Of a DNA stretch of 27,773 bases, positions 8,347 to 26,289 are shown piece by piece. The stretch spans positions 1 to 27,773 of the IMG/VR virus record IMGVR_UViG_2531839178_000008; one strand, given 5' to 3'. Numbering within the stretch: position 1 is the first letter of the stretch; each line of letters opens with the position of its first letter. Source of the stretch: a virus. Lineage: Duplodnaviria; Heunggongvirae; Uroviricota; Caudoviricetes. The translations under genes were made by a program, and so were the position numbers. Below the pieces are notes generated by a model. It worked only from the letters and a program-made list of their open reading frames with translations, ran no database searches and had not been told where the DNA came from.

Positions 8347-8688
8347 TCATCCGAAGAAGCAGCAATCCGGGTCAGCACGCACAAGCTCAAGCGCATCAGT
8401 CAGCGAAAGTTCAGTACTGTACTGATGCCATTTCATATCCTTCCGCATCCAATAGATTTTCCATCTATCCAGAGAACGTATGTACTTGATTCTTGCTGAT
8501 GGCAGGATGTTTGTTTCACCTGGGTTGCCCTGCCACACGGGGCGCTGTTCGCCGATATCTATCGTTTGGTCATTGATGCTATAAACAATATCCAGTTCAT
8601 TGCGGATATGTTCAGGCGGCCTTATGCTTTCAATGAATTGGTGAACTTCTTTTTTGACCGCTTGATATTCAAGGTCAGTGAACGCCAT
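8347..8688 (-). CDS. hypothetical protein (113 aa) directly downstream of the repressor gene
   Basis: ATG at 8688 with GAGGAGG 5 nt upstream, 37 bp after the repressor stop on the same strand; no family recognised. Confidence 0.6.
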   Translation of the reverse strand: MAFTDLEYQAVKKEVHQFIESIRPPEHIRNELDIVYSINDQTIDIGEQRPVWQGNPGETNILPSARIKYIRSLDRWKIYWMRKDMKWHQYSTELSLTDALELVRADPDCCFFG

Positions 8689-8725
8689 CTATCCTCCTCA
8701 CCCAAACGTTTCTTCAGGCCACTGG

Positions 8726-9432
8726 TTACCAGCTATGCGATGACCAGAATACTCTGCCAATAATCCTTACGGTTTTATGAAATTCATCTCTATCCATTAC
8801 TTCATCCGGGTACTCTTCGCGATTTATTGATCTGATTATCACCGATGTAGGAGTGGCGATTAATGTTTTTACTCGCAACAAATCAGACTGGCAAATAGCG
8901 TAGGTTTTACCATCTCTGATGGTGGTATCTTGTGTGTTAACACCAACAACATCGCCATCGTGAAGAGTTGGTTCCATGCTTTGACCTGTTACCCTTACCA
9001 GCTTGGCAGAACTTTCAGTTACCCCCATCTTTTTCAGATAGTACTTTCTGAAAACCAAAGAGAACTCTGATGATTCTTCTATCTCGCAGCTACCGCTTCC
9101 AGCCGAAAGCGAAACGTTAAGAAGAGGCAATGCGACAAACTCGTCATCGTTTTTTTAATGTCTTCCCATACCACAGCTTTTAAAGATGACTCACGGATAT
9201 TGGATGGTTCTTCATGTGTACCATCCCTCATTTCACCAATACCAGAACTAAGCCATTCAGGGCGTACTTTTAAAGCATTAGCTAACTCAACCATCTTGCG
9301 AGATCCGTTTGTTTTACCGGATGACATCTTCTGTATGGCTGGCTGAGATATTCCAACCATGTCCGCAAGCTGTGATTGCGACACCCCTGCCGATCTCATG
9401 GCTGCATTTAGTCTTTCTGCGAATGTTTTCAT
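8726..9432 (-). pseudogene. cI: cI-like repressor (XRE-type HTH plus S24 LexA-like peptidase domain) interrupted by a frameshift
   Basis: N-terminal frame from ATG 9432 encodes the HTH domain (QSQLADMVGISQPAIQKMSSGK). A second frame (8726..9130) encodes ...LPLLNVSLSAGSGS... with Ala-Gly and GQSMEPTL (S24 Ser motif). The frames meet at an A7 run (coding strand; + strand T7 at 9150..9156); one extra A gives a continuous repressor. Confidence 0.8.
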
Positions 9433-9444
9433 ATCCACAAATCT

Positions 9445-9520
9445 ATAACTACGGTTATCCAAAGTAAAATAATAAAGGTTATTGCTATCTTTTATAACTT
9501 GGGTTATCCTTGGTTATAAG
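9445..9520. promoter_or_regulatory. OR operator region with divergent promoters
   Basis: Palindromic sites ATAACTACGGTTAT (9445..9458) and ATAACTTGGGTTAT (9494..9507), plus AATAAAGGTTATT (9471..9483) and a partial site at 9510..9520; putative pR -35 TTGCTA (9482..9487) and -10 TATCCT (9505..9510). Confidence 0.6.
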
Positions 9521-9543
9521 TAATGACTGAAAGAGGTATGCTC

Positions 9544-9768
9544 ATGAATTTAGTAATTCAACGAGCCTTGAAGATTGTCGGTAGTCAAAAGCGGCTTGCC
9601 GACAAGTGTGGTGTAACGCAGCCAGCAGTACACAAATGGCTGAAAGGCGGGCAGGTTTCTCCAGAGAAAGTTACCGCCATCGTTAACGCCACTGGAGGGC
9701 AGATCAAGGCTTACGAAATTCGCCCAGATTTACCACACCTGTTTCCAAAACCGAATCAGGCAGCATAA
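9544..9768 (+). CDS. cro: Cro-like DNA-binding protein (YdaS-type HTH)
   Basis: Divergent from the repressor; AGAGG 7 nt upstream of ATG 9544; HTH segment SQKRLADKCGVTQPAVHKWLKG. Confidence 0.7.
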   Translation: MNLVIQRALKIVGSQKRLADKCGVTQPAVHKWLKGGQVSPEKVTAIVNATGGQIKAYEIRPDLPHLFPKPNQAA

Positions 9769-9806
9769 GTAACACCGCTATTTTCACAATGGGCATTCGT
9801 CCTACG

Positions 9807-9821
9807 TCGCTGACAAAGCGA
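9807..9821 (+). promoter_or_regulatory. nutR boxB hairpin
   Basis: TCGCTGACAAAGCGA, same UGACAAA loop as the nutL element, between cro and cII. Confidence 0.6.
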
Positions 9822-9851
9822 GCCCCAAGATATCTGACCAACTAAGGCCAT

Positions 9852-9867
9852 ATGCGTTTCCACGCAT
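9852..9867 (+). terminator. weak tR1-like hairpin
   Basis: ATGCGT-TTCC-ACGCAT between boxB and cII with only a weak T tract after it. Confidence 0.25.
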
Positions 9868-9906
9868 AGCTTTCAACTAACTATTCACTATTGGAAATCT
9901 TAAGAA

Positions 9907-10206
9907 ATGGAACAAACAAGTTACAGCAAACTATCACAGCGCGACGTTGATCGTGCAGAAACAGATTTACTCATCAACCTGTCAACGCTTACCCAGCGCG
10001 GTCTGGCAAAGATGATTGGCTGTCATGAATCGAAGATAAGCAGAACGGACTGGAGGTTTATTGCTTCGGTCTTGTGTGCTTTCGGAATGGCATCAGACAT
10101 CAGTCCGATTAGCAGGGCTTTTAAGTATGCGATTGATGGACTCACCAATAAAAAACGCCCGGTGTGCAAGACCGAGCGTTCTGAACAAATCCAGATGGAA
10201 TTTTAA
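9907..10206 (+). CDS. cII: cII-like transcriptional activator
   Basis: C-terminus ...GLTNKKRPVCKTERSEQIQMEF matches the lambda cII tail as recalled; position after cro and nutR. Confidence 0.8.
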   Translation: MEQTSYSKLSQRDVDRAETDLLINLSTLTQRGLAKMIGCHESKISRTDWRFIASVLCAFGMASDISPISRAFKYAIDGLTNKKRPVCKTERSEQIQMEF

Positions 10207-10228
10207 CAACATCCAACGAGGTAATTAT

Positions 10229-10372
10229 ATGCGAAAAACGCAGGAAAATAAACGCGTTAATCACCGAAAAGATGTGCTACGTGACCAGTTTTATCAGGGG
10301 GTTAATCCAGAAATAGCTGTGCCACTGAGAGAAATACTTAACAGGTACAAAACTTCGGAGAAGTCAAAATGA
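10229..10372 (+). CDS. small hypothetical protein (47 aa)
   Basis: ATG 10229 with GAGG upstream; stop overlaps the next start (ATGA). Confidence 0.4.
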   Translation: MRKTQENKRVNHRKDVLRDQFYQGVNPEIAVPLREILNRYKTSEKSK

Positions 10373-11121
10373 GCATGAATCTTATGGCTAAGGCCATGAA
10401 TATAAAGGTTGGCAACCCACTGAGAAAACTGATTCTGATTAAACTTGCCGATAACGCCAATGATAATGGCGAATGCTGGCCTTCATATCAACATGTCGCT
10501 GACCAGTGTGAGGTGAGCAGATCGACAGTAAAAAGTCACATTAGGGCACTGGAAGAGATGGGGCTTTTGAAAAGGGAATGCAGAAGAAAAGGAGAGCTTA
10601 ACCAGTCAAACGTTTTTTATCTGACGCTGGATAATGCACAACAAATCCCACCAGAATCAGGTGGGGCAGGAGCTGCCCGGGGTGGGGCAGGAGCTGCCCC
10701 CAGAACCTATCACTCTTTTGAACCAGTCAATGAACCTAAAAACATTATGTTCGAACATGTCCGAACGGAGTGTGAAAAAACTCCTGACCGTCACGAAGAA
10801 ACCGACAAGGCATTCGAGGAAATATTCTGGTGTGCAGGCATGCGGAAAGCCGGGAAGAAAAACGCAGCTTCGGCATTCAGAACACAGTTCAGGGAATGGC
10901 GTAAAACTACCAGGGGGACGGCAAGCGAGTTTGCCACGATGCTGGCAGACGATATTGCATGCAGGAATGGTAAGCAGTTCGGATTCGACAGGTTGTTACC
11001 GTCGAGCTACCTGAACGGTCAGCGCTGGAACGACGAGAAGCCAGAAACCATTCAACCACAATCCAGACCATCATCCGCAATTACCGTATCGAAAACTGGC
11101 TACGTGTTTTTCGACAGGTGA
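10369..11121 (+). CDS. replication initiation protein (O-like, winged-helix N-terminal domain)
   Basis: N-terminal HTH-like segment (NPLRKLILIKLADNANDNGECWPSYQHVADQCEVSRSTVKSHIRALEEMGLLKR) of the type found in phage replication initiators; internal iteron-like repeat; position after cII. Confidence 0.6.
   Translation: MSMNLMAKAMNIKVGNPLRKLILIKLADNANDNGECWPSYQHVADQCEVSRSTVKSHIRALEEMGLLKRECRRKGELNQSNVFYLTLDNAQQIPPESGGAGAARGGAGAAPRTYHSFEPVNEPKNIMFEHVRTECEKTPDRHEETDKAFEEIFWCAGMRKAGKKNAASAFRTQFREWRKTTRGTASEFATMLADDIACRNGKQFGFDRLLPSSYLNGQRWNDEKPETIQPQSRPSSAITVSKTGYVFFDR
10660..10701. repeat. two tandem 21-bp repeats with internal dyad symmetry (candidate origin iterons)
   Basis: GGTGGGGCAGGAGCTGCCC occurs at 10660..10678 and 10681..10699, each with inverted GGGCAG/CTGCCC arms, followed by an AT-richer stretch; encodes a GGAGAAR/GGAGAAP repeat. 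Confidence 0.6.
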
Positions 11122-11124
11122 ACC

Positions 11125-11232
11125 ATGAAATCAAAAATCAAATCGCTACTGGTCGCTGGTTATAACCACGGCTGGTTAAGTATTTCGTTTGTCGATTTCT
11201 GGTTTAAAAATCTCAATCTGAGGGAATCATGA
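11125..11232 (+). CDS. small hydrophobic ORF (35 aa) coupled to the primase-helicase start
   Basis: ATG 11125 four nt after the upstream stop; stop TGA overlaps the primase-helicase ATG; MKSKIKSLLVAGYNHGWLSISFVDFWFKNLNLRES. Confidence 0.3.
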   Translation: MKSKIKSLLVAGYNHGWLSISFVDFWFKNLNLRES

Positions 11233-14135
11233 GGCCAAGTGAACTTAGCGACCTGCTTTGGGCGCAGGTTGACAGGGTGGCTCCGCACCTGTTGCCAAAT
11301 GGCAAGAAAGAGGGGCATGAGTGGGTTGCCGGTAACGTCAACGGTGACAAGGGAAACAGCCTTAAGGTCAACCTTAGCGGCAAGAAAAAATGGGCTGATT
11401 TCGCTGAGGGAGACGGCGGTGACATGCTTGATTTGTGGATGGCATGTCGTGGAATTAACCTGCATCAGGCTATGCAGGAAGCGAAAGCATTTCTCGGTAT
11501 CAAGGATGACGATCACCATTTCGATGCCAAACGTGAGAAGAAATTCTCCAGACCTGATCGCAAGAAAATCGCCCACTACGTTACCAGAACAGAATCCCAT
11601 CTTGAGTACCTGCAATCGCGTGGCATATCGCCAGAAGTCGTAAAGCGCTACGAGGTTGTCAGCGGCAAGGTGTGGAATGGAGAACGAGAACTGGATGCTC
11701 TGGTGCTTCCGTACAAACGCGATGGTGAGTTGTTGCAGGTCAAGCGAATCAGCACTGAGCGCCCGGACGGGAAGAAAGTCATTATGGCAGAAGGTGATTG
11801 CGAACCTTGCCTGTTCGGATGGCAGGCTCTGGACGCTGGCGTGAGGGCGGTTGTGCTTTGCGAAGGCGAAATTGATTGTATGAGCTATGCGCAATACGGC
11901 ATCTCGGCGTTATCCGTGCCGTTTGGTGGCGGGAAAGGCGCTAAGCAACAGTGGATTGAGTTTGAGTATCACAACCTCGACAGGTTTGAGGAAATATTCA
12001 TCTCGATGGACGTTGATGATGTTGGTCGTGAAGCCGCAAGGGAAATCGCAAGCCGACTCGGTGAACATCGTTGCCGTCTTGTTACTCTGCCGTACAAAGA
12101 CATCAACGAATGCCTGATGAACGGTGTTACCGAGGATGAAATCTGGCAGTACATCGGCACGGCATCCTACTTTGATCCTGAAGAACTCTACAGCGCGCGA
12201 GAGTTTTACCAGGACACTATCAACGCTTTCTACAGCAAGCAGCAGTATCTGTTTAATCCACCGTGGGAATCTCTGGCAGATAAATTCCAGTTCCGTGAGG
12301 CCGAGTTGACGCTGGTCAATGGTGTGAACGGTCACGGAAAGGCATGCCCACTGAATGAGCCTATTCTTTTAGCTGATGGGACATGGACTACTCACGGGAA
12401 TGTAAAAATTGGCGATCAGGTGGCGTCAGTAGACGGCAATCCGTCAACTGTCACTGGGATATTCCCGCAGGGTGTTAGAGATGTTTACCGAGTCACATTT
12501 GAAGATGGTCGTTATGTTGATTGCGCAGGCGATCACCTATGGGAGGTCACTAGTCGTGGATTCACGAAAGGCGAGAAACGCCGCGTGATAGATACCTTCG
12601 GGTTGAAGCGGTTGAGTGAAACGAAGAGGCACAAAAATGGCGTTAGGATTCCTGAAATAACTGGTGACTTTGGCGACCACTCAGAGCCATTAGCATGGGT
12701 TATCGGCTCCCTTCTCGGGGATGGTAGTCTTAGCAATGGGAGCGTGAAGTTTTCAAACGTCGAGCCATACATGATCGAGCGTATGAAGGCTGAACTGCCT
12801 GATTACAACTTCTCTGGAGATGGTAAGGACTGGCTGATATCAACGGCGCGTGGTCAGGTAAATCCACTCATGGAGACCCTGCGAGGTTATGGACTAATGG
12901 GGTGCACAGCAAAAAACAAATTCATCCCTCGTGTGTTTTTTTCCGCAAATAAATCAACGCGTATAGGCATGCTGTGTGGTCTGCTTGAAACGGATGGGTA
13001 TGTCGAGAAGGATGGAACGCTTGTTTTTTCCTCAGCAAGTGAAGAACTGCGCAATGGGGTTGTTCAACTGGTTAACTCACTCGGCGGGTCATGCCGGACG
13101 CGAGTTAAAACTGGCGTGACATACACATACAAGGACGATAAGCGGCATGGGATGGATTCATACGAGGCAAGAATCAGACTGACAAGAGAAATCAGGGAGG
13201 CCATCCGTTCACCACGACTCAATGGCAGATTAACTGCGCATCGATTCGAGGGCTGTGGGGTATTCGTCAGGAATGTTGAAAAAATCGGCAATGCAGAATG
13301 CTTGTGTATTATGGTCGATCACCCTCGCCACCTGTATGTAACCAGGGGATATGTGGCGACGCATAACACCGAGGTTGTCGGGCATATGGCACTTGAGGCA
13401 ATGCGTCAGGGTGTGAAGACGTGCATCGCGTCACTTGAGCTGAAGCCTGGTATTCTCCTTAAGCGCCTTACCCGTCAGGCGACGTGCTGCAAGATTCCGC
13501 CAGTGCTGGAAATTGACTCTGCATTTAAATTTTATGACGAAAGACTTTGGGTGTTTGGCCTGACCGGAACGGCGAAAGCCGACAGGCTGATCGAAATATT
13601 CGACTACGCTCGCCGCCGATACGGGATCCAGTTATTCATCATCGACAGCCTGATGAAATGTGGCATAGGCGACGATGACTATAACGGGCAGAAGGCGTTT
13701 GTTGACTCGATTTGCGACTTCAAAAACAAAACAAACTCCCACGTCATTCTCGTTACTCACTCGCGAAAAGGAGACAGCGAAGAAAAACCAACCGGGAAAA
13801 TGGACGTAAAAGGCTCTGGAGCGATAACAGACCTGACAGACAACCTTTTCATCATCTGGCGTAACAAGGCTCGCGAGAGAGCGTTACAGAGAGTTCAGAG
13901 TGGTGAAAAGATGTCAGAGAAGGACGAACAGCTACTGGCATCTCCGGCATCTGTTTTAATGCTTGAAAAACAACGTAACGGCGAAGGTTGGGAAGGTGGT
14001 GTCCCGTTGTTCCTTGACGAGCAATCGCACCAGTTCCTGCAACTTGAATCAGGATCGCCATATAGCTACATCGCCAATATGCCGAAATCGGAATATGACG
14101 AGGCGTGGCGACAGGAAAACGTGACGGAGTATTAA
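11229..14135 (+). CDS. primase-helicase (Toprim primase plus gp4/DnaB-like SF4 helicase) containing an intein
   Basis: Toprim motif (VVLCEGEIDCMSYA), P-loop GVNGHGKA interrupted, Walker B-like IQLFIIDSLMK after the insert; 968-aa ORF with GAGGG ribosome-binding site. Confidence 0.85.
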   Translation: MRPSELSDLLWAQVDRVAPHLLPNGKKEGHEWVAGNVNGDKGNSLKVNLSGKKKWADFAEGDGGDMLDLWMACRGINLHQAMQEAKAFLGIKDDDHHFDAKREKKFSRPDRKKIAHYVTRTESHLEYLQSRGISPEVVKRYEVVSGKVWNGERELDALVLPYKRDGELLQVKRISTERPDGKKVIMAEGDCEPCLFGWQALDAGVRAVVLCEGEIDCMSYAQYGISALSVPFGGGKGAKQQWIEFEYHNLDRFEEIFISMDVDDVGREAAREIASRLGEHRCRLVTLPYKDINECLMNGVTEDEIWQYIGTASYFDPEELYSAREFYQDTINAFYSKQQYLFNPPWESLADKFQFREAELTLVNGVNGHGKACPLNEPILLADGTWTTHGNVKIGDQVASVDGNPSTVTGIFPQGVRDVYRVTFEDGRYVDCAGDHLWEVTSRGFTKGEKRRVIDTFGLKRLSETKRHKNGVRIPEITGDFGDHSEPLAWVIGSLLGDGSLSNGSVKFSNVEPYMIERMKAELPDYNFSGDGKDWLISTARGQVNPLMETLRGYGLMGCTAKNKFIPRVFFSANKSTRIGMLCGLLETDGYVEKDGTLVFSSASEELRNGVVQLVNSLGGSCRTRVKTGVTYTYKDDKRHGMDSYEARIRLTREIREAIRSPRLNGRLTAHRFEGCGVFVRNVEKIGNAECLCIMVDHPRHLYVTRGYVATHNTEVVGHMALEAMRQGVKTCIASLELKPGILLKRLTRQATCCKIPPVLEIDSAFKFYDERLWVFGLTGTAKADRLIEIFDYARRRYGIQLFIIDSLMKCGIGDDDYNGQKAFVDSICDFKNKTNSHVILVTHSRKGDSEEKPTGKMDVKGSGAITDLTDNLFIIWRNKARERALQRVQSGEKMSEKDEQLLASPASVLMLEKQRNGEGWEGGVPLFLDEQSHQFLQLESGSPYSYIANMPKSEYDEAWRQENVTEY
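12345..13367 (+). mobile_element. intein (341 aa) with a LAGLIDADG homing-endonuclease domain, inserted at the helicase P-loop
   Basis: Starts at Cys (CPLNEPILLADG...IGDQV...DG, block A), block B His (AGDHLWEV), two LAGLIDADG motifs (WVIGSLLGDGSL and IGMLCGLLETDGYV), blocks F/G (CLCIMVDHPRHLYV...GYVATHN) ending in His-Asn, followed by Thr as +1. Confidence 0.8.
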
Positions 14136-15109: not shown

Positions 15110-15418
15110 TTAAACGAAGCGGATCTGGAGTTTTTTTCCAGTAGCGCGGGCGAATTTTTTTAGGGTGGCAAATGATGGGCCGCTGATACCTGATGCGAGA
15201 TTACTTTCCATTCTGGTGATCGCGGTCGCTTTTGTTCCCATTCGCTCGGCAACTTCAGCCTGAGTTAAGCCAGCTTCTTTGCGTGCTGCCAGCATTTCAT
15301 CAAGCAGTGCGAATTCGTCAGCGATAGCGTCGTATTCTGCTTTAAAAGCCGGGTCTTCCATCCATTTGGCTGCCATTTCGTCGTGTGTCATGGTGGGGAG
15401 AGTGCGTTTACCAGTCAT
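15110..15418 (-). CDS. HigA-family antitoxin (XRE-type HTH)
   Basis: ATG 15418 with AAGGAGG 6 nt upstream; HTH segment AGLTQAEVAERMGTKATAITRMESNLASG; overlaps the toxin 3' end by 11 nt. Confidence 0.8.
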   Translation of the reverse strand: MTGKRTLPTMTHDEMAAKWMEDPAFKAEYDAIADEFALLDEMLAARKEAGLTQAEVAERMGTKATAITRMESNLASGISGPSFATLKKFARATGKKLQIRFV

Positions 15419-15737
15419 GCTTAACCTCCTTCATTCTGGTTTCAGCTTTCTTGCGTTCGGCTGGCGGTGTTTTCTGCGTTTTCTTTACAAAACTATGCAG
15501 CATGATGATGCGTTTCCCTGTCAGAGTGCAGTAAAAAACACGCGCGATCCCATCGTTGCCTTTAATTCTGAGTTCGAAAAGCCCGTCACCAAAGGCGCTG
15601 GTGTGAGGTTCTCCGAGATTGCTGCCATATATCTTCATACGTTCAACGAGATGTTGGTATCGGGCACGCATACTCAATGGAAGCCGATCGACTTCCAGCC
15701 TTACATCTTCACTGTAGTATTCGATAGTGTAGTTCAT
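15408..15737 (-). CDS. Gp49-like / HigB-family (RelE/ParE superfamily) toxin
   Basis: MNYTIEYYSEDVRLEVDRLP...GDGLFELRIKGNDGIARVFYCTL...IIMLHSFVKKTQKTPPAERKKAE matches the addiction-module killer pattern; toxin precedes antitoxin. Start could also be the ATG at 15749. Confidence 0.8.
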   Translation of the reverse strand: MNYTIEYYSEDVRLEVDRLPLSMRARYQHLVERMKIYGSNLGEPHTSAFGDGLFELRIKGNDGIARVFYCTLTGKRIIMLHSFVKKTQKTPPAERKKAETRMKEVKHDW

Positions 15738-19262: not shown

Positions 19263-19337
19263 GGGTCAGTCGTATAAAGGTCATTACGGAAGGCTGTTAA
19301 CCTTCTTATCGTGGTTCGAGTCCACGCTGTCCCGCCA
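19263..19337 (+). tRNA. tRNA-like gene, anticodon GUU (Asn-like), atypical
   Basis: Canonical T arm CGTGG-TTCGAGT-CCACG, anticodon arm GAAGG-CTGTTAA-CCTTC, encoded CCA; but acceptor stem has a U-U mismatch and the D arm is only 3 bp. Confidence 0.4.
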
Positions 19338-19342
19338 AACAT

Positions 19343-19418
19343 GCTGGTTTAGCTCCAATGGTAGAGCAGTCGCCTTGTAAGCGAATGGGTAGCGGTTCAA
19401 GTCCGTTAACCAGCACCA
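19343..19418 (+). tRNA. tRNA, anticodon UGU (Thr)
   Basis: Manual fold: acceptor GCTGGTT/AACCAGC, D arm GCTC-CAATGGTA-GAGC, anticodon loop CTTGTAA, variable TGGGT, T arm AGCGG-TTCAAGT-CCGTT, discriminator A, encoded CCA; 76 nt. Confidence 0.65.
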
Positions 19419-22399: not shown

Positions 22400-24019
22400 A
22401 TGCCGTTACCATTCCCCTTCGATTTTAAACATCCTGATTACCAGATGGTTTTTGAATGGCGGATGGAACGCCTACAGCGCATTCGCCAGAATCCTGAAAT
22501 ATTGCCTGCACTAAAACAGTTTTACCGTACCAATCCGGCTCAGTTCATCATCGACTGGGGCATGACAACGGACCCGCGTAATATTGATTATGGCCTGCCG
22601 GTGACCATTCCGTTTTTACTCTTCCCTAAGCAGGAGGAGTGGATCCACTGGATTATGGAACGCTGGAGCAATCGGGAGAATGGTATTACCGAAAAATCCC
22701 GTGAAATGGGGCTCAGTTGGACCGCGATCGGACTGGCCTGCTCGCTTTGTCTCTTCAACAAAGAAATGGTTATCGGTTTCGGCTCCCGTAAAGAGGAATA
22801 CGTCGACAGCACCGGTGACCCGAAAGCATTGTTCTGGAAGGCGCGCAAGTTCGTGGAAACACTACCTGTAGAGTTTCGCGGTTCGTGGAGCGAGAAGAAG
22901 CACGCGCCATATATGCGTGTTGAGTTTCCTGAAACTGGTGCCGTTATCAAAGGCGAGGCTGGCGATAATATCGGTCGTGGTGACCGTACGACCCTTTATT
23001 TTGTGGATGAGGCTGCTTTTCTCCAGCGACCATTACTTATTGATGCCGCGCTTTCTCAGACAACCCGATGTCGTATCGATCTCTCATCGGTTAACGGCAT
23101 GAACAACCCCTTCGCACAGAAGCGGCACAGTGGAAAAATCCCGGTGTTTACGTTTCACTGGCGTAGCGATCCGCGTAAAGACGATGAGTGGTATCACAAG
23201 GAGTGCGAGAAAATTGATAACCCAGTCATCGTTGCCCAGGAACTGGATCTTAATTACCAGGCATCAGCAGAAGGCATCCTGATCCCCTCAGAATGGGTAC
23301 AGGCTGCGGTTGATGCACATATCAGACTGGGCATTCAGCCCGGCGGCCAACGGCTTGGTGCAATGGATGTCGCCGACGAAGGGCGGGATAAAAACGCCTG
23401 TTCGCTCCGTTATGGCATCCTGCTGAATGACGTACAGGAGTGGTCAGGTAAGGGGAGTGACATCTATGACTCTGTGGTTAAGGTTTTTGGTCTGTGCGAT
23501 GACTTTGGTGCCGATGAGTTTCGCTTTGATGAGGACGGATTGGGTGCTGGCGTTCGTGGTGATGCGCGCGCTATCAACGAACTGCGTGAAGCGGAGGGCA
23601 TCTGTCAAATCACCGCCACTCCATTCCGGGGCAGCGGGAGCGTGTTTCATCCTGAAAATGAAGCTGTTCCCGGTGATAATGGTAAACCGGCTCGTCTGAA
23701 TAAGGACTTTTTTGTCAATGCCAAAGCCCAGGGGTGGTGGCATCTTCGCAAATTATTCCGCAATACATTTCGTGCACTACAGGGTATGGAGTATGACCCG
23801 GATGAGATTATTTCCATCAGCAGCACAATGGAAAATAAAGACCGGCTGTTGATGGAGCTGTCACAACCTACCTGGTCAAAAAATGCCACCGGAAAAATTC
23901 TTGTGGATAAGCAACCTGACGGAACGAAATCTCCAAACCTGGCTGATTCTGTGATGATTGCTTATGCCCCGATGGAAATGCCCATCGTAATTTCTGATGA
24001 CTTTATGGAGTGGATCTGA
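22400..24019 (+). CDS. terminase large subunit
   Basis: 539-aa protein with an ATPase N-terminal region (Walker B-like [10 protein letters not shown]) and a nuclease-like C-terminal region, between the small subunit and portal. Confidence 0.85.
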
Positions 24020-25559
24020 TGTGGCCGTTTAAACGAAAAGAACCGTCAGCGCCGGCGGTACCGGACAAACAACCTGAACCACAGCCACCGGAAATTAACG
24101 ATGAGGTGATCGCTTCCGTCCGGCAGAAACCACGGAGGGAGTTTGTTCGCTATGAGCCACCACCGGGCGTTATCCCGGCACCGGTTCGCGACGCTGTGCT
24201 GGCAATGGATGCAACACCGTATGACACCCTGAACAGTCATTATCCTGATTTTGTTTATGGTGGTTTCCCGGGCTATCCGTATCTGGCACTTCAGGCGCAG
24301 TTACCGGAGTACCGGCGTATGGTCAGTGTGCTTGCCGAGGAGATGACCCGTAAGTGGATAAAGGTTAAGGCGGTCGGAGAAGGGGACGACAGCCACGCGT
24401 CACGCATAGCGCAGCTTACTGACGCACTGGAGCACTATAACGTACAGGACGTTTTCAGACTGGCGATTGAGCACGACGGCTTTTTCGGGCGAGGGCAGAT
24501 TTATATTGATGTGCGTTCGCCATCGGGTATATCTGCCTGGACTGACCCGGCGGAGCTGGGATCCGGACTGTTTATTTCCGACAAAAAATCCCGAAAGGTT
24601 CCCTGCTGGGGCTTCGTGTTATTGAACCCGTCTGGACGTATCCGGGTATATATAACGCGGATAATCCGCTGAGTGATGATTTTTACCGTCCGTCCGAATG
24701 GTACGTAATGGGAAAAACGGTTCACGCCAGCCGCATGATTGATCTGATCTCCCGTCCGGTTCCGGACATGCTGAAGCCGGCCTACAACTTTGGCGGCCTG
24801 TCACTGGTTCAGATTGCTGAGCCTTATGTTGATAACTGGCTGCGAACACGCGACAGCGTGGGCGATATGCTGCATTCGTTTTCGCTGAGCGGGATTAAGA
24901 CGGATATGACACAGGTATTAAGTGGTAAAAGGGACCCGAATTACGCAAAACGCGCGGAGTTGTTTAACCGTACCCGTGATAACCGCGGGCTGCTGATGCT
25001 GGACAAGACGAACGAAGAGTTTTTCCAGTTCAACACTCCCCTGAGCGGCCTCGACACCCTTCAGGCGCAGGCACAGGAACACATGTTCTTTGTCAGTGCC
25101 ATACCGTCCGTAAAATTCGCCGGGCTGAGCCCAACGGGACTGAATGCGTCGAGTGAGGGTGAAATCCGGGTGTTTTACGACACCATTGCTGCACTTGCCA
25201 CCCGTCTTCTGAAGAAACCGCTGAAAAAGGTGCTGGATATTATCCAGTTGTCTGAGTTCGGCGATATCGATCCTGATATCACGTTTGAATTTGAACCCCT
25301 GCATGAGCTGACGCGCGAGCAACTGGCGAATATCCGTAAAACTGAGGCGGAAACGGATCAGATTTATGAGAGCACCGGAGCAGTGACCAATAACGAAGTA
25401 CGCGAACGGCTGGCGACTGCGCAGGACAGCCCGTACAGCGGTATTGACCTGAGCGGGGACATCGAGATTGACGACACTGAAATTGACAACACCGAAGAAA
25501 ATCCGCCGCAAGGCCCGAATGCAGACCCTGAGGCGGATTTCACCCAACGCGGGGATTGA
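24019..25559 (+). pseudogene. portal protein interrupted by a single-base frameshift in an A6 run
   Basis: The N-terminal frame (to 24672) and C-terminal frame (open from 24546, listed from 24708) overlap; one extra A in the run at 24583..24588 joins them (...[28 protein letters not shown]...), giving a portal-sized protein of about 510 aa. Confidence 0.75.
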
Positions 25560-26289
25560 GGCCTGGTACCGCAGACAACTGGATAATGCCGTCAGTGGGA
25601 TGCACAACAGTGTACTTTACTGGCTGCGGGCTGAGTACCGTAAAACAGACCTCGCGCAGGATGCGTCCCCCGTTAACCTGATGCGTGGTGCCATGCAGCA
25701 ACTTGCCCGGCGCTGGCAGAAAAATTTTGACGAAATGGCCCTGCGGCTGGCGAGGCGGTTTGCCGGTGATGTCCTGAAAAACAGCGATGCGTCACTGTAC
25801 ACTGCGCTCCGTGATGCCGGGTTTACGGTTCCTTTCCGTATGACAACGGAGATGAATACCGCACTTCAGGCCAGCATCACGGAGAATGTGAACCTCATTC
25901 GCTCCATCCCGCAGCAACATCTCACCCAGGTGGAAACACTGGTCATGCAGTCTGTTGGCCGGGGACGTGACCTGAAAACGCTGACCGATGAACTGGAAAA
26001 ACGTTACGGCATCACACGACGGCGCGCGGCGCTGATTGCCCGCGACCAGAACAATAAGGCAACGTCGGTAATGCAGGCCGCCAGACAGCGTTCGGTGGGT
26101 ATCACTGAAGGTGTCTGGAGGCATTCCCGCGCGGGTAAAACATGGCGTCCGTCGCATGTGAAGGCGAACGGTAAACGGTTTGACCTGCGAAAGGGGATGT
26201 TTCTGGATGGTAAGTGGGTACTGCCGGGCGAAGAAATCAACTGCCGGTGTGGCTGGGAGGCCGTTATTCCCGGACTGGAGAAAAAATGA
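25519..26289 (+). CDS. head morphogenesis protein (Mu gpF / SPP1 gp7-like minor head protein)
   Basis: Position after portal and conserved C-terminal region (..[50 protein letters not shown]..); start uncertain (ATG 25519 or the listed TTG 25468). Confidence 0.7.

Follow-up and report, generated by a model that had tools for sequence, protein, structure and literature searches.

A one-base shortening of a homopolymer splits the portal gene of a lambdoid prophage contig from Shigella boydii 965-58

Introduction

In the draft genome of Shigella boydii 965-58 the portal gene of a prophage is divided over two open reading frames that part at a run of six A's. The division could reflect the way in which the run was read by the sequencer, a real mutation of the prophage, or a site at which ribosomes or RNA polymerase change frame and still deliver the full-length protein. 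Here we ask which of these readings fits the locus best. We analyzed the whole stretch of DNA available, 27,773 bp, hereafter the window, together with its relatives among complete genomes, prophages, isolated phages and assembled read sets.

Results

Genomic context of the split gene

The window is the entire contig AKNA01000005.1 of assembly GCA_000268145.1, as established by exact protein matches to Shigella boydii 965-58. It carries a lambdoid prophage with a structural module of the myovirus type. The early region is lambdoid (CI, Cro, CII, N, replication, Nin and Q) and is followed by two tRNA genes, a lysis cassette and the beginning of the head module, which in the relatives runs on into a myovirus tail of the E217/Pa193 type. 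The portal gene lies between the gene for the terminase large subunit (TerL), which is directly upstream and overlaps it, and the gene for a Mu F-like head morphogenesis protein (Table 1). It thus occupies the portal position in the head-packaging order TerS, TerL, portal, head morphogenesis/scaffold, capsid. In GenBank its two halves are EIQ36516.1 and EIQ36517.1, each labelled 'gp18 domain protein'.

Several other features of the contig were recorded along the way. A 968-aa primase/helicase gene (Toprim_2 and AAA_25) at 11229..14135 on the plus strand shows matches to Hint (PF05203, residues 379-424) and to a LAGLIDADG homing endonuclease (PF14528, residues 579-634) between its two enzymatic domains. 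The insert is probably an intein, and a relative without the Hint and LAGLIDADG matches is far shorter (L010, >626 aa). Within the Nin region, genes at 15110..15737 on the minus strand encode a HigA-like HTH_3 antitoxin (102 aa) and a Gp49/RelE-like toxin (109 aa). Genes for tRNA-Asn(GTT) and tRNA-Thr(TGT) are located at 19263..19418 on the plus strand, between the Q antiterminator and holin genes; at this position E. coli CFSAN029787 has another set, of four tRNAs.

A single A restores the portal gene

The sequence at the break reads GAC AAAAAA TCC. The upstream frame spans 24010..24672 on the plus strand and encodes 220 aa from a GTG codon, or 217 aa from the ATG codon at 24019 chosen by the annotators. 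Residues 1-190 of this N-terminal fragment are native and the final 27 are out of frame. The second frame, one nucleotide apart from the first, is open from the nucleotide that follows a TGA codon, so that the open frames overlap (Table 1); the ATG-initiated portal ORFs themselves do not. The C-terminal fragment corresponds to residues 231-513 of the intact portal. Residues 191-230 are encoded at 24589..24707 in the second frame, but upstream of any start codon. A functional portal in two pieces was therefore rejected as a candidate, these 40 residues of the domain being in neither product.

With one A inserted in the run, the frames join into an ORF of 513 codons, and its product agrees with WP_000267592.1 of E. 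coli CFSAN029787 at 513/513 residues. This bears out exactly what an earlier note on this DNA had claimed, namely that the portal frames overlap and fuse if the A6 run is changed to A7. When the gene was aligned base by base with its relatives, A6 versus A7 was the only indel in it. The missing A is an ordinary homopolymer frameshift in a portal gene of the intact type.

Table 1. Features of the window that bear on the split portal gene, with their coordinates
Feature	Position	Strand	Evidence or remark
A6 run, site of the -1 nt frameshift; A7 in all intact relatives	24583..24588	+	sequence and alignments
Portal N-terminal fragment, 217 aa, EIQ36516.1	24019..24672	+	PF06381 profile positions 2-96, E=1.7e-12
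Portal C-terminal fragment, 283 aa from first ATG, EIQ36517.1	24708..25559	+	PF06381 profile positions 140-357, E=6.7e-59
Stretch with both frames open, 127 nt	24546..24672	+	ORF list; TGA at 24543..24545
T7 on the plus strand (A7 on the coding strand) versus 8 in relatives; splits the gene of a 235-aa CI-like HTH + S24 repressor	9150..9156 (gene 8726..9432)	-	alignment
T7 on the plus strand versus 8 in relatives; splits a 177-aa hypothetical gene	7830..7836 (gene 7625..8157)	-	alignment
11-bp tandem duplication TGGCGATGTGG, frameshifts the DUF2213 gene	27407..27417	+	alignment
DUF2213 / Pa193_gp24-like head gene, cut to 413 aa versus 449 aa in relatives	26286..27527	+	frameshift by the duplication
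Terminase large subunit gene, 539 aa, intact	22400..24019	+	length as in relatives (annotated TerL protein / hypothetical protein)
Mu F-like head morphogenesis gene, 229 aa, intact	25600..26289	+	PF04233

The split gene belongs to the PF06381 portal family

Searches with the PF06381 profile (Phage_portal_3, formerly DUF1073; cut-off 33.8 bits) gave 47.2 bits for the N-terminal fragment, 199.8 bits for the C-terminal fragment and 285.7 bits for the intact relative, which matches the whole model (positions 2-357, E=5.4e-85). As deposited, the window encodes no single polypeptide that covers the whole PF06381 domain; once one A is added, it does. Because both fragments match the same Pfam portal model, which the intact protein spans in one stretch, the split is not a chance pattern. 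Solved dodecameric portals were matched over residues 190-483, best by 8fvh (E217 gp19, E=2.8e-32) and 9b41 (gp19 portal, E=9.1e-33) and more weakly by 7kln and 8hds. The split gene is thus a phage portal gene of the PF06381 / DUF1073 family, of the type of Pseudomonas phage E217 gp19.

The run has seven A's in all intact copies

Comparison with portal homologues, which had been named beforehand as a check, gave a uniform answer: A7 and one ORF were found in 38/38 other copies examined (8 complete E. coli genomes, 29 IMG/VR prophages and 1 metagenome contig, at 84-99.7% identity). All eight complete E. coli genomes, mostly from human stool isolates and several of them IS-rich, carry the gene at 99.7% identity over a span of 1551 nt, versus 1550 nt in the window. 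Six of the eight were aligned base by base, and each has A7 and a single CDS of 1542 nt. The other copies came from a pattern scan that permitted A6 plus 0-2 extra bases and returned the 29 IMG/VR prophage contigs and the metagenome contig; in these 30 contigs, which are 84-99.6% identical to the window, the run is exactly A7 and the open frame is 508-519 codons long in most. The sequence of the intact portal protein was found on 227 contigs, and that of a close variant on 186.

No match came from a megablast search of the portal gene among 50,697 phage records; the search at the protein level was the informative one. The nearest isolated phages, which are Klebsiella temperate phages (59% amino-acid identity) and Ralstonia phages in which the gene product is annotated as 'portal protein', have one unbroken homologue. 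An exact-pattern scan of the GTDB species representatives also gave no match; Shigella is probably folded there into a single E. coli representative. A neighbouring DUF3024 protein, looked up to trace sister contigs, proved too widespread (7315 blocks) to serve for this. Since the 38 other copies and the isolated phages that we examined have one uninterrupted gene, the split is not a feature of the family.

Programmed recoding at the A run

A split gene of this kind might still yield full-length portal if ribosomes shifted by -1 at the A run or if RNA polymerase slipped there. Were the tRNA-Lys in the P site to slip by -1 on the second AAA, the outcome would be exactly the wild-type sequence, and in E. 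coli ribosomes are prone to shift on A runs read by tRNA-Lys, as in IS1 (A6C) and dnaX (A AAA AAG). However, the zero frame, GAC AAA AAA UCC, offers C AAA AAA U at the site, and this does not have the form of the slippery heptamer X XXY YYZ. Folding the 98 nt downstream of the run and comparing them with shuffled sequences in search of a stimulatory RNA structure revealed none that was significant (MFE -25.2 kcal/mol versus -23.5 +/- 2.9 for the shuffles, z = -0.61). Efficient transcriptional slippage needs a run of about nine A's or T's, as in mxiE, Thermus dnaX and the poly(A) tracts of Buchnera, and six A's fall far short of this. The two-frame layout is kept in 0/38 other copies and in none of the homologues of isolated phages, and we know of no need for a truncated portal isoform. 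Programmed frameshifting was rejected on the grounds that there is no canonical heptamer, no significant downstream structure and no conserved split, and we regard recoding of either sort as extremely improbable. Traces of wild-type portal could in principle still arise by slippage of tRNA-Lys in the P site, with no sign of selection for it.

Other frame lesions in the contig

The portal is one of four genes of the contig with a broken frame (Table 1). The repressor gene, which the earlier note had put forward as a companion case of one missing base, is a real one: its run is T7 where the relatives have T8, and the repaired CI-like repressor is identical at 235/235 residues to WP_000846391.1. 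A T8 run is likewise T7 in the 177-aa gene, which lies between N and CI and has no Pfam match; its repaired product is identical to WP_001193679.1 (177/177). The DUF2213 gene is broken in another manner, by the 11-bp tandem duplication, which none of more than 40 relatives shares and which is located 366 bp from the end of the contig. Removing it gave a DUF2213 protein identical to that of a relative (449/449). The duplication cannot be a base-calling error, as no sequencing chemistry yields such a change. If real, it means that one or more head genes are truly broken, and the prophage may then no longer be kept from decaying.

Beyond the four lesions we found no IS element and no nonsense codon, and the genes have the lengths seen in the relatives. 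After repair, the portal, CI, 177-aa and DUF2213 proteins are each 100% identical to the proteins of intact relatives, so that no decay has followed the apparent lesions. The observations that bear on decay are one lesion outside homopolymers, the 11-bp duplication, and two private substitutions in well-sampled stretches. The earlier note had offered a defective prophage as one of two alternatives; outside the four broken frames nothing in the prophage points to such a state.

Changes in run length concentrate in the longest runs

We compared the homopolymers of the window with those of relatives at >=98.5% identity. The window contains no run longer than 7. Both runs that are 8 bases long in the relatives are 7 in the window (2/2), and one of the three 7-base runs, that of the portal gene, is 6; the two 7-base runs called correctly are those at 12936 and 20712. 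Among the 21 runs of 6 bases, none is shorter in the window and one is longer (C6 at window 4..9, at the contig start, versus C5 in FDAARGOS_944). A second 6-base run was flagged in the census; it is shorter in L018, the contig from SRR059778, and not in the window. All three run changes that break a gene are shortenings by one base. The changes are therefore confined to the longest runs, become more frequent with run length and are mostly shortenings, as an artefact would have it, and correcting the runs gives products identical to those of the relatives with no secondary decay.

Substitutions tell a similar story. Where at least three close relatives cover the window, only two private substitutions were found (9526 and 25466), and the same well-sampled stretches hold three private indels, besides the A6, which two further read sets also have. 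This excess of indels over substitutions runs counter to ordinary mutation spectra. A Logan assembly of SRR059778 is nearly identical to window 4470..11389 and reproduces both T7 runs. The two assemblies differ at a G-run (7193..7198), which the window and its closest relatives have as G6 and the SRR059778 contig has as G5. This disagreement suggests that run lengths were ambiguous in the underlying reads. The G-run and the C-run at the contig start are discrepancies in non-coding or terminal sequence.

A6 recurs on different backgrounds

The exact 283-aa fragment was also found on two Logan contigs, from SRR061722 (L005) and SRR7163918 (L007). The three A6 copies stand on three SNP backgrounds, and each resembles an A7 genome more closely than it does the other two. 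The haplotype of the window is common to CFSAN029787 and RMDEC465, which are A7 genomes, and over 5.4 kb one SNP and the portal indel are all that separate the SRR7163918 contig from E. coli O121 201805972. The different SNP backgrounds imply that A6 is recurrent and not one inherited lesion; a mutational hot spot and a systematic error at the tract would both fit. An old pseudogene, in which a single ancestral change from A7 to A6 was passed on among the A6 strains in a long-defective prophage, would account for there being three A6 copies. Against it, no SNP is exclusive to the three, each of their haplotypes is common to A7 genomes, and no further decay is seen. A single lineage-specific pseudogene was rejected on the strength of this haplotype table, and we give it next to no weight.

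Over 8.5 kb the SRR7163918 contig shows no indel besides this one. The stretch that it covers contains a single run of at least 7, the A7 tract itself, so that a contig clean elsewhere is still what a flow-based platform could have produced. If this run, of 2018, is Illumina, A6 exists in nature.

Small indels were also recorded in other copies of the module. The SRR061722 contig has a change from A6 to A5 at its position 7968, in the major capsid gene; two further genomes (L026 and L051) share a change from C5 to C4 at window 25667, in the Mu F-like gene; and the S. dysenteriae portal protein VDG89075.1 (P0012) has a change from T5 to T4.

Discussion

The two explanations that the earlier note had offered, undercalling of homopolymers and real inactivation, are the only ones left once programmed frameshifting has been tested and found unsupported. 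Even taken together, an old inherited pseudogene and programmed recoding are very unlikely. Starting from the observed one-base difference, its uniqueness against the relatives, its dependence on run length and the identity of the repaired proteins, we infer that base calling, rather than mutation, is the cause, and consider homopolymer undercalling in the draft assembly somewhat better than an even bet. Long homopolymers would have been under-called in the reads of the 2012 draft, and the A7 of the portal gene would have entered the record as A6. The two 8-base runs, in the CI repressor gene and the 177-aa gene, would have been shortened in the same way. The real prophage would then make a normal 513-aa portal, with nothing unusual at the site. 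Drafts of 2010-2012 from this sequencing centre were, we presume, produced largely by 454 pyrosequencing. Besides the shortening that depends on run length and the identical repaired proteins, the repressor tips the balance toward undercalling. The N, Q, holin, lysozyme and Rz genes are intact and of normal length, and by analogy with lambda biology a true CI null beside them should be lethal. This makes the CI lesion suspect, and the portal lesion in turn likelier to be an artefact too. Undercalling sits less easily with the presence of A6 in the independently assembled SRR061722 and SRR7163918 contigs, with the 11-bp duplication, which it does not explain, and with the two other 7-base runs called correctly.

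The first two of these observations speak for a real and very recent slipped-strand deletion, to which we give a substantial chance that nonetheless falls short of even. DNA polymerase would have slipped in the A7 tract and left a portal null allele; no capsid would package DNA, the prophage would be defective for particle production, and the tract, as a mutational hot spot, would give rise to the null allele independently in other strains. Shigella is known for the accumulation of pseudogenes. A6 in three data sets on three SNP backgrounds, an SRR7163918 contig otherwise free of indels, a private duplication that also disrupts the DUF2213 gene of the head, and the small indels of other kinds that further Shigella and E. 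coli assemblies carry in this module all fit such a deletion. However, the proteins show no later decay, being 100% identical to the intact ones once repaired, and private indels outnumber private substitutions in the well-sampled stretches. At wild-type rates, a change of both 8-base runs in one lineage at about 0.3% divergence would be unlikely, and the companion CI lesion should kill a host with intact lysis genes. The assembly of the window and that of SRR059778 also disagree at the G-run. If the lesions are real, they would be routine slippage-driven inactivation of a prophage in Shigella. A more elaborate version, with A6 real and of at least three independent origins and the A7 tract acting as a reversible, contingency-like on/off switch for particle production, strikes us as highly unlikely; the prophage family would thereby lose particle production time and again and could win it back, and slippage of tRNA-Lys or of RNA polymerase might leak a little full-length portal. 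On balance, we favour undercalling over recent slippage.

The case matters mainly for annotation hygiene, as two GenBank 'gp18 domain proteins' are the halves of one ordinary portal. The 965-58 prophage may be mis-scored as defective, or its repressor as inactive, from three one-base differences, and these sit exactly in the longest homopolymers of the contig. Undercalling and recent slippage are both well-known kinds of event, and neither touches an open biological question.

Among known systems, the nearest to the gene itself are the PF06381 portals, E217 gp19 (PDB 8fvh) and gp19 (PDB 9b41). It shares with them the match to the full model, the match to solved portals and the setting between TerL and Mu F-like genes. 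It differs from them in being split after residue 190, with residues 191-230 outside both called ORFs, and its N-terminal 190 residues have no counterpart in the solved structures. Like IS1 (A6C), dnaX (A AAA AAG), Shigella mxiE (T9) and the Buchnera poly(A) genes, it has an A/T run at the junction of overlapping frames and involves a -1 shift. Unlike them, its run is too short, the heptamer is non-canonical, a stimulatory structure is lacking and the split is unconserved. Slipped-strand pseudogenes in decaying prophages of Shigella and EIEC resemble it in the Shigella host, the mononucleotide tract and the small indels in the same module elsewhere, whereas this contig is free of IS insertions, nonsense codons and excess substitutions. 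Set against flow-based undercalls (454 / Ion Torrent), the locus is unusual in that A6 is seen in a read set of 2018 too and in that the 11-bp duplication is a change of another kind, and the link to the platform is here presumptive. It has in common with them one-base shortenings in the longest runs, a dependence on run length, repaired products identical to those of the relatives, and several such changes in a single contig.
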